Program-made: the position numbers
Origin: a virus
Lineage: Duplodnaviria; Heunggongvirae; Uroviricota; Caudoviricetes
Strand: one strand, 5' to 3'
Virus record (IMG/VR): IMGVR_UViG_2740892231_000007
Length of the DNA stretch: 9,779 nt
Part shown: positions 1 to 6,000 of the stretch, in pieces
Layout of the letters: every line of letters starts with the position of its first letter
How positions within the stretch are numbered: the stretch's first letter is position 1

Positions 1-3000
1 ATGGCGAGAAAAACACCCCCATTAACCACGGTGCAGATCAAAGCAGCCAGACCAGCGGAAAAGGAATACACCCTACAGGACGGCGGAGGGCTTTTTCTCC
101 TGGTCAAACCGTCCGGATCAAAACTCTGGCGATTTTCCTACTACCGGCCATCGGACAAAAAAAGAATATTGCTGAGTTTTGGATCGCTTGATGATGTTTC
201 CCTGGCTGATGCCAGAAAACGCCGTAGCGAGTACAGAGCGTTAATCAGTGCCGGAACTGACCCGCAGGGCCATGAGAAGAAAAAACGAGAGGCAGAGGCC
301 CGAAGACAAGGGAACACGTTCGAAAATGTGGCGGCGGCATGGTACCAGGTGAAAATCAGCCAGAATCTGGCCCCCAACACGATTAAAGACATCTGGCGAT
401 CGCTGGATAAATATGTATTCCCGTTCATCGGCAACACCCCAATAGACACCCTGACCGCTCGCAGGTTCGTTGAGGTGCTTACCCCCATCAAGGAGCGCGG
501 CAACCTGGAAACACTCAAACGGGTTTTACAGCGCGTTAATGAGGTAATGGATTACGCCGCCAACAGTGGGCTGATTGATGCCAATCCGGCTATGAATGTG
601 CGTAAGGCGTTCCCCTCCCCTGTAAAAAAACATATGCCAACAATCCGCCCCGAACAGTTGCCGGAGCTTATGCAGGCTTTATCAGTATCGGCAACAGAAC
701 GGCAGACCAGATTACTGATTGAATGGCAGTTACTGACCGTAACCCGTCCCGCCGAAGCGTCATCAACGCGGTGGGATGAAATCGACCTGGACGCGCAACG
801 CTGGACGATACCCGCCGGACGCATGAAGATGCGCAGGGATCACGTTATCCCACTTTCCGGTCAGGCTATGGCGGTGCTGGAGGCCATGAAACCAATCAGC
901 CACCACCGCGATTATGTTTTCCCGAGTCTGAAAGACCCACGGCAGCCAATGAACAGCCAGACAGCAAACGCAGCATTACGACGCATGGGGTTCGCTGGCG
1001 TGCTGGTGTCTCATGGATTACGCGCCATATTCAGTACAGCAGCGAACGAGGAAGGATTCGAGCCGGACGTAATCGAGGCCGCACTTGCCCACGTCGACAC
1101 TAACGAAGTGAGACGGGCATACAACCGGAGCAACTACATAGAAAAACGCGTGGTGCTTATGCGCTGGTGGGGCGAATTTGTCGAGGCTGCGGCGACGGGC
1201 GTAACCCTCGCCAGTGGTAAAAGGGGTATCCGAGCCGTTTAGCTGTACAGAAAACCAGTAAAAACTACGAAAACCATGTAAAACCGTCGTATAATTGCAT
1301 CAAATTTAACGACAAGGCCGTGAAACATGAAACCGTTAAGATGCAAAAAAATTTCAGATGCAATTGCGACGGGCTGCAACTGGCCCTGATGGTTCAGCAT
1401 GAATTTTGGTCAACCTACGATCCGGAGGACAGAACGACGGCCCCATCAAAAAAACAGGTAGTAGATTTCCTGGTATCCCGTGGGGCATCCAGGAATATGG
1501 CTGAAAGTATCGACAGGGTAGTTCGTCCGGCAACCATGAAGACCGGAGGCAGGCCAAAAAAATGGCGGTAACAATCCTCAAAGCGGCAGAAATGCCGCTT
1601 TTTTTATAAATCCCTTTCAAATCACCAACATAAAAAACGATTCTAACCGTTTAAAAACGGTGGGAACTGTTTTTACCCATATCCGATGATTTACCGTATT
1701 TGTCACCGGAATACACCGGATTCACAAGGTAAATCACGATGGAAGCAATCAAAAAAGTCATCTTTCGCCAGGAAGTAAAAAAACTTATCCACATCAAGGC
1801 AGACAGCACGCTTCAAAGCATGATCAACGCCGGAGAATTTCCGCAGGGTTTTCGCGTTGGTTTACGCCGTCGCGGATGGTATGAGGAAGACGTAATCGCA
1901 TGGATGAAAGAACGTGAGCAGGAAGCACGCGGAACGGCTGCGTAATGGTGTGAGGCATAACACGATGAACATAACAAAAAGCGCCCCGTTGCCGGAACGC
2001 CCTTGTGAACAATTAACCTGCTGCGCCTTATGTGTATGTGATCCCAAACATAAGCACGGGAATGATAGCCGCTATCAGGCTGGTGGGCAATGTAATTACC
2101 CTTTGGGTTCTATGCCGCGTTGCTGTAATTCTTTGCGGATTATTCGCTTTATCCAGGCAGCAAGAGAATCATCGCCGTCATGTTGTTGTGCCTTTTCCAT
2201 CTTTTCCCGTAAGTCAGGATCTAAACGGAACTGGAACGGAGGATTACCACGCCTTTCGTTTTTGTGTATTGACACGTTAATTACACCTCATGTAATGTAT
2301 TTATGTGTATTGACACATTACACACAATCAACACAAAAAGCAAAGCCCGCTGGCGCTATGAACACCAACGGGCTTCTAACCAAACCATTAATTGAGGTAA
2401 CGATTATGGCTATAAAAGAGCATAGCTTACTCTTTATACACACACAAACGCCCCGGAAACAGAATAATCCGTTTCATAGTTCGGTTTTGTGCACTCATCC
2501 TGGCGGTCGGTTTTTGCCGGATTTAAGCCGCCGTGGGTATTTATCGACAAAATCTTCAAGGGCAAATTTTTCTGGTGGCACTAAGCGCGGCGCTGGTGGT
2601 GGTATTTTTGTTCTGGTTAGTTCTTCCTCAAGTCTGGCGCAGGCTTCTGACTGCCTTTGCCGGATGATTTCATCATCTTGCGTTTGCGTGTCTTGTATTG
2701 GTGATAGTGTGTTGTTGGTCATGATACTGCCCTGTAAAGCAATGCGCCGTAGTACCTCACACCACGGCGCTGATAGTGATTATTCTGATTCTTTGGCCTT
2801 GCGGCGCTGGCGGCGTTTGATCTCGCCTCGCATGGCTGTAACGATAAATTGCGCAGTGCTCTCGCCTGTTTCTTTTACTTGCTCCATAGCCTCAACAACT
2901 TCATGCGGGGCGCGAGCCTGTAATTTCTGTGATTTGTTATTGATATGGTCTCTTTCCATTTCTGCTTCCCTTTGTGATTACTGGAATCCAGTATACACGA

Positions 3001-6000
3001 AAAAGACCAAAACAAAACGCTTGAAGTGGATTCCACTTAGTGATTATACTGGAATCCAGTTGAGTGTTTATCACTCAATGCAAACGAGGCAGAAAAGGAT
3101 TGCCGTCCTTTCGCAGCCTCTGACCACCAACGATAGCAACAGTATCGAGGTAGCTATGAGAAATCATATCACACACCCGCAAGGGCGGGACCCGCACAAC
3201 CTGAATAAATACATCTGGCGTTTTATCGCCCTGAGCACGGCTAAGCCGCGCGTAATCCACATCGTGGCCACCAGCGAACAGGAAGCCCGTCGGCAATCAC
3301 CGGCTGGCTGCGTGATGGTATTCACTGCCCGTATTCGTCAGGGGGTGGACTTATGAGCCAGGAAATCACACTACAACAGGCAGCAGAACGCGCCCACCAA
3401 ATCGAAGTTATTTGCGCACTGGCAGAGGATTACCCTGGCATGATGACCGACAGCGAATCAGGGGCAATCATCGGCTTACTTAAACGCCTTAGCGGTGAGG
3501 TCTGCGTATTCCTGAGCGATGAGCAGGAAAGAAGAACGCTTATTTCTAACGAAAAAAAATGCGGAGGGGTACACCATGTGCAATAACATCCGTCCGGACG
3601 CAACCGCCGCCGCGCTCACTACGCTGATGCTCGCGCTTATTGATATTTCTGTTATTGCTGACAGGGCGCATAAGCACGCCACCAGTGAAACAGAATATGC
3701 AGGGGCTTTCGTTCCTCATTCGCTGGCGGTTATGCAACTTAGTGCTGATATGGCGCTGAATGAGGCCAAAGCCATCCTGATTGCTGATTGTGAAAATGGG
3801 GGGGGGGTTATGCGTGATGATCGTTTTAATTCCCTGAAACAGGAATTTTCCGGCGTTCCTGATGATGCGGCTGATGCGCTTTCGTCAATGCCAGAACTTA
3901 TTAGAGCGGCTTTTTTCTTACTTTCCACGAGAGAATATAAATCAACGGGGCTTGATGTACTGAATATCGCCGCCGATTATGCGGAATATGTGGCAGAGGC
4001 GCGTTACAGAAGAAAATTTCCTGAGGATGTAAGCCATGCGTGATATTTACCACGAAACAACAGATCGCGTATTTCTTGCACTTTCTCACAGTGAAAATAT
4101 GATGGAAATATTGCGCATATGGCTTGAAACACTTGGCGACAATGAACGCGACAAACAAAAATCAAGAATTGCCACGGCATTAATAACGCTTCTTGAGCCT
4201 GTAATAAATGAGTTGCAGGAAATAGAGACATTGCACGACAGATATAACGAACAGCACACCGGAGAATAAAAATAATGAAACTTAAATATTCTGGCTTAAC
4301 TGCCAGTGGCAACACTCACCCTAAATTTACGCGCGGTGATATTTACCGCGACCAGTACGGCGGTACGGTAATGATTAAGGGCGTGGCGGGACGGTGCGTA
4401 ACTTACCGCCGTGAAGGTTACGAATATGATTGCGTGATGCCTGTTTATCAGTTCCGGCGTGATTTTTCTCTGGTACAGACCGCGCCGCATAACGTGCCCA
4501 CCAGCAACGCCAGGGCACGGGCAAACATCCAGAAGCTGAAAACAATGATTAACGGATTCAGGGGTAAAAAATGAAACTGGCACCGAACGTAAAACGATTA
4601 CCGAAAGATAAATACACCGATGCGATTATTTTTGCGGGTATTGATGCTCATTCATTCGCAGAGCATTACATCATTGCACAGGCCAAAAAAGCAGGCGATC
4701 CAGTCCCTCCCGTTTATCTGGGGCGTTATCAGTTAAGCGAACTGGATAACCTCCAGATTGTTGATGATGGGCGATACAGGGCGACGGTGATACGCGCCGG
4801 AAATATTGAAGAGCCGCAGCTGTTAACCATCGCCACGAAACTGGCGAGCGCCGGAGTCCAGGAGGCGCGGCTACTTTCTGAAAATTTCGAATTGCTGGAG
4901 GAATGGAGCGACCAGCTTCCACGGCTTAGGGAGGCATGGGAACGCGGGGAAAGCCTGGTCATGAAAAAAATCCCCCAGCGAAAAACCAAGCTACCAATGA
5001 GCGTTGGATCTACCGGATACGACACACAGCTTGATTACGTGGTAAAGGGGATTATTCCGGCATCGTCGCTTTGCAGCATATACGGGGCGAGCGGTTCCTA
5101 TAAATCATTCCTTGCCGGATCGTGGGCGTGTCACGTTTCCACGGGCCGCCAGTGGGGAGGCCGCAGGGTGGCGCATGGCGCTGTTCTCTATGTGGTTGGT
5201 GAAGGCGGTATAGGCGTTCCGCGTCGTGTAAAAGCCTGGGAGGTTGTGCACGATGAGCAGGTGAAAAATCTGTATCTGGTAAACCGTCCCATCTTTCCGG
5301 CTGCCCCGCTTGATATTGATGAAATGGTTATCGCTGCCAGCCAGGTGGAGCGGGAAACGGGTAAACCTGTTCGCATGATTATTCTGGACACGCTGGCGCG
5401 TTGCTTTGGCGGCAATGATGAAAATGACTCCCGCGACATGGGGGGATTTATCCGTGGTTGTGACGAGCTTAAACGGCGCACAGGGGCTACGGTGCTGGTG
5501 GTTCACCATTCCGGCAAGGATGAAACAAAGGGGGCGCGTGGTTCCAGTGCATTTCGTGCATCACTGGACGCTGAATACCGGATACGCAGGGAGGACGCAG
5601 GAAGCGAAGCGCTGGTTATCTCATGCACCAAAATGAAGGACGCGGAGGAACTCAAAGAGGCTGCCTATGATTTGCGGGTGGTGGAGCTTTTTACCGACGC
5701 TGACGGGGAGTTAATCACGTCGCTGGTGGTGGTGGATAAGCCGCGTCCTCCCGTTGAACTGGAGCGCATCGAAGAGGCTGGCAACAAGACGGAGAATCAT
5801 GCTGCGCTATGGGGATGTATCCGGTCACGCACACAGCACGGCGACAAGTGCACGATCCCGCTGTTACGTGACGATATGAAAAAGCTGGGGTACGAAATGA
5901 AAAACTTCAGCCGCTGGCTACGCAAGCTGGAAAAAGACGGGGTTATTTATATCGACGGTGATGATGTAGGCCCTCTGTAAAAAGTGAGGCGCAAAAGTGA

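Follow-up and report, generated by a model that had tools for sequence, protein, structure and literature searches.

A putative autoregulated ribbon-helix-helix repressor with matched candidate operators, and a proposed SymR-like antisense element, at the replication operon of Gram-negative phage-inducible chromosomal islands

The window analysed here is a 9,779-nucleotide stretch of IMG/VR virus record IMGVR_UViG_2740892231_000007 which, judged by its genes, is a near-complete Gram-negative phage-inducible chromosomal island (PICI) of ~11 kb, with an integrase gene (int), an alpA-like gene, a replication module and a capsid gene. Three palindromes lie in the 196-bp gap between a leftward gene for a 59-residue protein of predicted ribbon-helix-helix (RHH) fold and a rightward operon that begins with an Icd-like gene and contains the replication genes. 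The best reading of this arrangement, which we hold at a probability of about 0.7, is that the RHH protein is an autoregulated repressor of the Icd-like/replication operon, and that repressors of this kind occur in many specificity types; the three dyads are very probably its operators. A preliminary description of the window had proposed an autoregulated repressor that also shuts off the replication operon, and the comparison of 60 related loci reported below favours that proposal over the alternatives. In addition, two conserved hairpins in the leader of the operon look like a SymR-like cis-antisense RNA that covers the Shine-Dalgarno sequence and start codon of the Icd-like gene, as judged from the strand of the structure and its sequence context.

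Results

Palindromes and candidate promoters in the divergent gap

Every coordinate in the preliminary description (of the RHH open reading frame (ORF), the three palindromes, the rightward promoter and two hairpin repeats) proved exact; these and the other features are collected in Table 1. The 9.8-kb window contains seven perfect palindromes with arms of at least 6 and a spacer of 0-1, and three of them are in the 196-bp gap. When the gap was shuffled 2000 times, no shuffle had three or more such palindromes (mean, 0.1), so that their clustering is not due to chance, and with up to two mismatches the motif occurs in the window at these three places only. The sequence ACTGGAATCCAGT is found at both 2980-2992 and 3048-3060. 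The palindrome nearest the RHH gene, O1, extends over 15 bp (2979-2993) and is joined to a conserved minus-strand TATACT (2995-2990); O1 and O3 belong to an exact 14-nt repeat and stand in mirrored register to a TATACT hexamer on each strand.

The candidate rightward promoter TTGAAG-N18-TATACT (P_R), which had been noted earlier, was reported also by a consensus promoter scan. O3 covers its -10 hexamer, and O2, previously placed in the spacer, overlaps the -35 hexamer as well. O1 had been located correctly upstream of the RHH start codon, but what had been missed is that it likewise overlaps the -10 of a leftward promoter, the proposed P_L of the RHH gene. A further leftward candidate, TAAACA-16-TATAAT (3070-3043), was not counted, being specific to the window and unconserved in related loci.

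Boxes and RHH strands across related islands

A scan of one genome per species gave 60 loci from ~50 species of Enterobacterales, with 47-89% protein identity by the scan's own measure. The arrangement is conserved: in all 51 loci where it could be called, a divergent Icd-like first gene lies 180-216 bp from the RHH start, and in most loci an integrase gene lies within a few kb on the other side of the RHH gene. Boxes of the form TG-N5-CA are fixed at -31 and -76 from the RHH ATG in nearly all of the 60 loci, and a third lies at -98 to -111; in the window these are O1, O2 and O3 (box A), respectively. Read on the RHH strand, the consensus is aagTG-N5-CAC-n-TCAAg, a T-rich stretch, tg-n-GTATACTG-N5-CAC, aaggaG and ATG, in which 'TCAA' is the complement of the rightward -35, TTGA(A/C)G, and GTATACT is the leftward -10. 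The element GTATACTG is the most conserved upstream of the gene, at ~2 bits per position among 53 distinct upstream sequences. In related loci, TATAGT or TATACT stands immediately before box A when the sequence is read rightward, and each of the two outer boxes joins a conserved -10 hexamer in one common register (TATAcTG-N5-CA).

The five inner bases of the boxes differ between islands and agree within an island. The 9-mers of the -76 and -31 boxes are on average 1.7 positions apart within a locus against 4.0 between loci, and none of 20,000 permutations was as good. Most box types have no palindromic centre, and the clean dyads of the window are a feature of its specificity class. Each box type goes with a particular sequence of the RHH beta-strand: TGGAWTCCA with KSQK(L/V/I)QARAP, TGGCACCCA with KSQKMSARVP, TGAATCGCA with KSQQLNARFP, TGAAATACA with KSQMTTVRIP, TGAACACCA with KSLQVSVRLP, TGTGGCCCA with KSQALKARVP and TGTCAGCCA with KSKKLEARVP. 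Box distance is correlated with the distance between RHH beta-strands (Mantel r=0.64, 0 of 3000 permutations), whereas its correlation with the adjacent Icd-like protein is negligible (r=0.07, 268 of 3000 permutations). The value of 0.64 was obtained with eight loci excluded, in which a box is shifted or absent, and after dereplication on the RHH protein, the Icd-like protein and the box; an earlier run, with one locus per distinct beta-strand, fixed positions and the shifted or absent boxes included, gave a weak r of 0.17.

Two residues predicted to face the DNA (K12 and Q14 in the window), which align with DNA-contacting residues of Arc, are the same in 99% of locus pairs with identical boxes, against 3% of pairs with different boxes. 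Moreover, islands whose Icd-like proteins are 24-35% identical share boxes when the RHH strand matches, and islands whose Icd-like proteins are >60% identical differ in their boxes when the RHH strand differs. Because the boxes follow the RHH strand and not the Icd-like protein, the putative repressor and its sites would form one cassette that has been shuffled against its neighbours. We regard the concerted change of three separate sites within each island as a stronger argument for this reading than the strand correlation.

All six genomes that carry two or three islands have co-resident copies that differ in RHH strand class and in boxes (loci L004/L041, L005/L010/L042, L023/L044, L025/L028, L032/L048 and L036/L045/L056). 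These differences fit independent 'immunity types', in a sample that is too small for significance.

The RHH protein

The preliminary description had called the RHH gene unannotated; RefSeq does have its product, as WP_000439004.1, a 'YlcI/YnfO family protein', and the protein matches NCBIfam NF041551 at 72.3 bits (cut-off 30) over the full 42-position profile. That the ORF is a real coding gene follows from 57 distinct homologous coding sequences, in which variation at the third codon position is about double that at positions 1-2 and 68% of single-base codon differences are synonymous. The predicted fold, an N-terminal beta-strand followed by two helices, is that of an RHH protein, and the structure prediction thereby bears out the identity proposed earlier. 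This assignment is supported by the predicted fold and not by sequence similarity, since no curated RHH family matches the protein significantly. A profile search against PDB sequences reached Arc only at E=0.9, which is insignificant; the weak match aligns 'KSQKLQARVP' with the DNA-reading strand of Arc. Presumably, the protein is a dimer.

No match to the protein was found by tblastn among 50,697 phage records at E up to 1e-5, and this subfamily therefore looks island-borne and not phage-borne. We found no functional description of the YlcI/YnfO family in the literature. The second helix (residues 35-58; DNA 2786-2857) is, at 24 residues, unusually long for an RHH protein, and conservation in the family is highest at its basic end, GEIKRRQR, where E46 and R50 are invariant. 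This suggests that the helix does more than complete the core fold, for example by contacting the DNA backbone, by oligomerisation or by binding a partner. The homologue in Yersinia pekkanenii (L056:532-864) has 110 residues, with an inserted segment and a second copy of the C-terminal EIKRRQRKK helix.

A conserved leftward structure in the Icd-like leader

On which strand do the hairpins of the leader act? The minimum free energy fold of the window leader has three hairpins (z=-2.5). The two inverted repeats noted earlier are both there, TTGAGTG-N5-CACTCAA at 3060-3078 and AAAGGA-N6-TCCTTT at 3094-3111; the latter is the inner part of the larger, conserved hairpin 2, and hairpin 3 is additional. 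These repeats had been described as structures of the rightward 5' untranslated region, an assignment that fails for the conserved hairpins 2 and 3, which belong to the leftward strand by their pairing, their stability and their mismatches. Compensatory changes occur in 13 to 14 of the 18 pairs of hairpins 2 and 3 (the structure was written by hand and counted, since RNAalifold recovered the hairpin incompletely from the automatic alignment). In the rightward reading there are 69 A.C or C.A cells against one G.U, and in the leftward reading these A.C cells become G.U, so that 98.2% of cells pair leftward against 89.6% rightward. The leftward fold is the more stable in 50 of 50 loci, by a mean of 11.4 kcal/mol (in the window by 7.2 kcal/mol, -27.5 against -20.3), and a U-rich tail follows the large hairpin on the leftward strand only. 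Hairpin 1 is not biased to either strand (26 loci against 22) and may be the 5'-terminal stem-loop of the P_R transcript.

The element is complementary to the leader, the Shine-Dalgarno sequence and the start codon of the Icd-like gene. On the leftward strand, within the first Icd-like codons, all 41 dereplicated loci have a TAnnnT hexamer whose distance to the complement of the start codon is constant, irrespective of the amino acids encoded there. A covariance model built from 41 other loci, with no sequence from the window, found the element in the window at 35.6 bits (E=9.5e-7), and only on the minus strand; it also found a second copy in the window at 60.9 bits (E=1.7e-13) and one in the model island EcCICFT073 at 53.3 bits, all on the RHH strand, and nothing in 100 kb of the CFT073 helper prophage and flanking chromosome. 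Two of the related loci, L015 and L023, match Rfam SymR (RF01809) in the leftward direction at 40.4 and 35.5 bits, with significant E-values, and both fall short of the gathering score of 61 bits by which membership of that family is assigned. SymR itself represses translation (PMC1891008). Because of the leftward pairing and stability, the U-rich tail, the hexamer and the SymR matches, we read hairpins 2 and 3 as a putative antisense RNA.

Table 1. Positions of genes, candidate operators, promoters and RNA structures in the window
Feature	Position	Strand	Sequence, match or remark
Integrase gene	1-1242	+	within the window island
alpA-like helix-turn-helix gene	1739-1945	+	Pfam Phage_AlpA, E=0.003, below cut-off; PHROG 'excisionase and transcriptional regulator', E=1.4e-7; position after int
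Arc-like RHH2 gene	2096-2275	-	PHROG 228 'Arc-like repressor', E=4e-6; other family than the main RHH protein
RHH2 box	2263-2275		TGTGTATTGACAC, direct repeat; over TTGACA -35
RHH2 box	2304-2316		TGTGTATTGACAC, direct repeat; at likely start site
Second antisense-RNA element	2325-2408	-	60.9 bits; aligns with other leaders; terminator-like by scan
Truncated Icd-like start	ATG 2407		part of second module (2096-2408)
75-residue ORF	2495-2722	-	downstream of RHH gene
RHH gene, proposed repressor, 59 residues	2780-2959, ATG at 2959	-	YlcI/YnfO family
O1 (box C)	2979-2993		TACTGGAATCCAGTA, core TGGAATCCA; overlaps -10/+1 of the RHH gene's own promoter
P_L -10 (proposed)	2990-2995	-	TATACT; leftward promoter of RHH gene, proposed from conservation
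P_R -35	3021-3026	+	TTGAAG; promoter scan; TTGA(A/C)G in related loci
O2 (box B)	3024-3038		AAGTGGATTCCACTT; overlaps -35 and spacer of P_R
P_R -10	3045-3050	+	TATACT; 18-nt spacer; promoter scan
O3 (box A)	3048-3060		ACTGGAATCCAGT; overlaps -10/+1 of P_R
Hairpin 1	3059-3079	+	minimum free energy fold; inverted repeats at same place in many loci
Proposed SymR-like cis-antisense RNA	3069-3158	-	contains hairpin 3, terminator-like hairpin 2 and U-rich tail
Hairpin 2	3086-3120	-	conserved
Hairpin 3	3131-3147	-	conserved
Shine-Dalgarno sequence of Icd-like gene	3147-3150	+
Icd-like gene	3156-3356	+	NCBIfam NF033153, 69 bits; first gene of rightward operon
Proposed extended -10 of antisense RNA	3163-3171	-	TGATATGAT; inside codons 3-6 of Icd-like gene; function proposed
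RepA-family helicase gene	4571-5980	+	rightward operon
ClpP-like prohead protease/major capsid fusion	7321-9240

The same module in EcCICFT073

We located EcCICFT073 in E. coli CFT073 (NC_004431) at 1,377,930-1,388,654 (L065:27930-38654), where the capsid and decoration genes match c1499 and c1500 described in PMC6092414. In the RefSeq annotation of this island, a YlcI/YnfO gene points leftward and an Icd-like gene diverges from it, with DUF4222 and primase genes behind. Its RHH beta-strand is KSQALKARVP, for which the other loci lead one to expect the box TGTGGCCCA. This prediction held: the box is exact at both P_R positions, beside TTGACG-18-TATAGT, and is present with two mismatches at the autoregulatory position.

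Gram-negative PICIs have been described as 'transcribed unidirectionally and rightward' (PMC6092414). AlpA is an activator required for the transfer of EcCICFT073, which deletion of alpA abolishes, and overexpressed AlpA suffices for excision and replication of the island without a helper; whether a global repressor exists in Gram-negative PICIs was left unclear, and the difference from the Gram-positive islands was called a mystery (PMC6092414). The alpA-type gene is the regulator treated in the literature as the inducer of these islands (PMC6092414), and the preliminary description had seen in the window a control logic different from theirs. That contrast does not survive the comparison, given that the window has an alpA-like gene and EcCICFT073 carries the identical module; to judge from this sharing, the RHH protein would be an extra, overlooked layer in canonical Gram-negative PICIs and not an alternative to AlpA. 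The RHH gene, the operators and the antisense RNA are not mentioned in the satellite literature that we found, including PMC6092414 and a later genomic survey. A full-text search for PICI together with ribbon-helix-helix returned solely an unrelated paper, and we found no functional description in the literature on the repressor of capsid-forming PICIs or on the inducer of EcCICFT073.

Gene layout and spread of the island

PICIs of this group measure ~10-20 kb, carry int, an alpA-type regulator, a primase/helicase module and often a capsid gene, and occupy a site not used by prophages; the window island agrees with this in each respect. Between its alpA-like gene and the rightward operon there are three small leftward ORFs. 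The operon is tightly packed, with ORFs that overlap or abut, in the order Icd-like, DUF4222 and RepA-family helicase. The protease-capsid fusion is the sole recognisable morphogenesis gene of the window, and a near-identical relative has no annotated portal or terminase gene. A 480-residue ORF at 1914-3356 (+) was rejected as a gene; it is a stop-free frame antisense to three real leftward genes that runs on into the Icd-like gene.

In E. coli O22:H8 strain 154, which has a stretch 99.4% identical to window positions 2400-3400, the island sits between tRNA-Pro/yejM and yejO. The 1-kb control region is matched in 1341 of 5426 complete E. coli genomes. A close relative in E. coli O157:H7 strain 146N4 (L062:5346-17816), with the identical RHH protein WP_000439004.1, splits the large-terminase gene of a prophage in two, which is the 'helper-embedded' arrangement of PMC10111431. 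The Rfam 'int-alpA RNA' (RF02996) lies above its gathering score beside the integrase gene in three related islands (L006:6519-6587, L019:6443-6511 and L023:1847-1913) and was not found in the window by the Rfam search. Related islands have Bro/Ant-type genes directly after alpA, which might target the repressor.

A second, partial control module

The window holds a second module at 2096-2408, which consists of the RHH2 gene, two direct-repeat boxes, an antisense-RNA element and a truncated Icd-like start (Table 1). By its layout it appears to be a parallel case, an RHH protein with its own repeated boxes at the promoter of a homologous leader, and it has the look of a remnant left by recombination of two islands. 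Were its rightward promoter active, transcripts from it would run antisense to the 75-residue ORF and the main RHH gene. The leader of this module (2341-2413, +) weakly resembles the antisense-RNA region of the IncQ plasmid R1162 (RF00043, 19 bits, E=1.3), below significance. The R1162 counter-transcribed RNA also controls a RepA-type helicase gene, and the window island has a RepA-family helicase.

Discussion

How might such a module hold the replication operon off? We infer binding, repression, promoter use, antisense expression and any connection with AlpA or the helper from the conserved sites and structures, as follows. An RHH dimer would recognise an 11-13-bp box, (C/G)TG-N5-CA(G/C), with the core TGGAWTCCA in the window island. 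Occupancy of O3 on the -10 and start of P_R, and of O2 on its -35 and spacer, would block the operon of Icd-like, DUF4222 and RepA-helicase genes, and the island would not replicate; O1, on the -10 and start of the RHH gene's promoter, would provide negative autoregulation. As a second layer, an RNA of ~75-90 nt may be transcribed leftward from a promoter in the first Icd-like codons and end at the conserved hairpin; being fully complementary to the Shine-Dalgarno sequence and start codon of the Icd-like gene, it would prevent translation, in the way that SymR acts on symE. The inducing signal probably originates outside the module; in the related model island, helper-dependent AlpA is sufficient for induction. 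More speculatively, rightward transcription driven by AlpA could cross the convergent RHH gene, lower repressor synthesis and enter the operon; such read-through is conceivable because the scan found no strong rightward terminator between the alpA-like gene and P_R. The full picture, in which a two-layer immunity cassette of a diversified RHH repressor and a SymR-like RNA holds the replication operon off in canonical Gram-negative PICIs, including EcCICFT073, and is overridden by AlpA, for example through convergent read-through, is one that we advance tentatively, at somewhat less than even odds.

Several observations weigh against the reading of the RHH protein as the repressor or against the RNA layer. 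The support is comparative or predicted for every member of the family. Pfam has no significant match for the 59-residue protein (the best, PSK_trans_fac at E=0.024, is below cut-off), and Foldseek found none in the PDB. P_L has no good -35, and the stretch upstream of its -10 is T-rich. The helix region of the protein also correlates with the boxes (r=0.54), so that part of the box-protein correlation is due to shared descent of adjacent, co-inherited sequences. As to the RNA, the window copy scores lowest with the covariance model, its terminator has a weak U-tract (GUUUGCAUUG), and Rfam finds nothing in the window control region at E up to 1 and only chance-level matches at E up to 10. Finally, AlpA alone induces replication of EcCICFT073 (PMC6092414), and the RHH protein therefore cannot be the only or dominant switch.

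The last point bears directly on the proposal that the RHH protein alone serves as master switch for the satellite, like the Stl repressor of Staphylococcus aureus pathogenicity islands (SaPIs), and is inactivated by a helper-phage antirepressor. The repressor-like architecture over the promoter of the replication operon would suit such a role, as would the uncertainty in the literature over a global repressor (PMC6092414), and the near-invariant C-terminal helix EIKRRQR could be a protein-contact surface. We nevertheless consider it unlikely, since EcCICFT073, with the same module, needs AlpA and can do without a helper when AlpA is overexpressed (PMC6092414), and since a second, RNA-based layer appears to act on the same operon. 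The preliminary description had likened the arrangement to the Stl style, and here the gene order fails: int (+) and the RHH gene (-) are convergent, both in the window and in most of the related loci, unlike in the Stl islands. A helper antirepressor is possible; it is without support here, and no helper factor is known. The boxes might instead be sites for a different factor (the Icd-like protein, AlpA, the replication initiator or a host protein, for instance), while the RHH protein does something else, and the Icd-like protein does match PHROG 6196, annotated as a transcriptional repressor. This is very improbable in view of the tight linkage of the boxes to the RHH strand and not to the Icd-like protein, which persists both where Icd-like proteins are similar and boxes differ and where they are dissimilar and boxes are shared; and a host factor could not explain >15 island-specific box types.

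Even more improbable, in our judgement, is that the RHH protein is a type II antitoxin to the downstream 75-residue ORF and that the palindromes merely autoregulate the pair, with no role in replication. In its favour, antitoxins that bind palindromes in their own promoter are numerous among RHH proteins, several of the top structural matches of this one are antitoxins, and the small ORF lies on the same strand. The ORF, however, has no family match, and tblastn finds no counterpart in the 60 related loci; EcCICFT073 has at that place a 57-residue hypothetical coding sequence and not the 75-residue ORF (these two were not compared). Conservation extends instead to the divergent Icd-like gene, whose promoter is overlaid by two of the three boxes, and we rejected the toxin-antitoxin reading for want of a conserved partner. 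For the RNA, the alternative is that the hairpins work within the leader of the rightward mRNA, for instance as an attenuator, as a site for RNase or as a processed immunity RNA like P4 CI or P1 c4, and that there is no antisense RNA. The hairpins do lie in the 5' untranslated region of the Icd-like gene, c4 precedes icd in P1, and Watson-Crick covariation is equal on both strands; C4 and isrK profiles have been reported to match some PICIs (PMC10111431). Neither profile matched the window or eight related loci at E up to 1, and the excess of A.C cells and poorer pairing in the rightward direction, together with the stability, U-rich tail and SymR matches in the leftward direction, make a rightward function of hairpins 2 and 3 decidedly unlikely.

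By analogy, the control logic of an RHH repressor with an antisense RNA appears closest to that of P22 immI, and the RNA layer closest to SymE/SymR. The immI region of P22 has the RHH repressors Arc and Mnt, the divergent promoters Pant and Pmnt, and the sar antisense RNA. On the proposed reading, the likeness consists in a small RHH repressor, operators in or across two divergent promoters, autoregulation, and a cis-antisense RNA over a ribosome-binding site. The differences are that here one RHH protein goes with three dispersed boxes, whereas P22 has two RHH proteins with one operator each; that the operon here starts with the Icd-like and replication genes and not with an antirepressor; and that the similarity to Arc is insignificant and the antisense RNA is SymR-like, not sar-like. 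With SymE/SymR (PMC1891008) the module would share an RNA promoter within the first codons of the target, coverage of the Shine-Dalgarno sequence and start codon, and a target that is also repressed at its promoter by a protein, which would give layered repression. There, however, the target is SymE and the repressor LexA, in place of an Icd-like protein at the head of a replication operon and an RHH protein; and the SymR matches of the relatives lie below the gathering score, while the window copy has none.

Other satellite and phage systems resemble the module in part. The SaPI Stl and the Gram-positive PICI Rpr repressors (PMC6092414) are likewise divergent from an excision/replication operon, with intergenic control sites, but here the fold is RHH, int is not co-oriented with the repressor gene, an AlpA activator that suffices in the model island is also present, and no helper antirepressor is known. 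The AlpA-controlled Gram-negative PICIs (EcCICFT073; PMC6092414, PMC11773190) have the same gene set, and EcCICFT073 shares the RHH, Icd-like and antisense module; published accounts, in contrast, call these islands unidirectional and name no repressor. In P1 c4-icd-ant and with the P4 CI RNAs (PMC10111431), an RNA blocks, as the proposed one would here, the leader or ribosome site of an Icd-type first gene of an early operon, yet those RNAs are encoded on the same strand, upstream, and act through short complementary patches, whereas the structure described here is on the opposite strand. The kind of mechanism is thus well known; what appear to be new are a conserved control cassette in Gram-negative PICIs, its range of specificity types and its pairing with a SymR-like RNA.

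Gram-negative PICIs are very common and move virulence and defence genes. A candidate repressor with defined operators and a candidate antisense RNA, both inside a model island, make the open question of the repressor experimentally tractable. The >15 matched pairs of protein strand and operator are also a resource for the study of DNA reading by RHH proteins or for orthogonal repressors. If the proposed reading is true, the RHH specificity types would allow separate control of islands that share a host, much as in heteroimmune phages.

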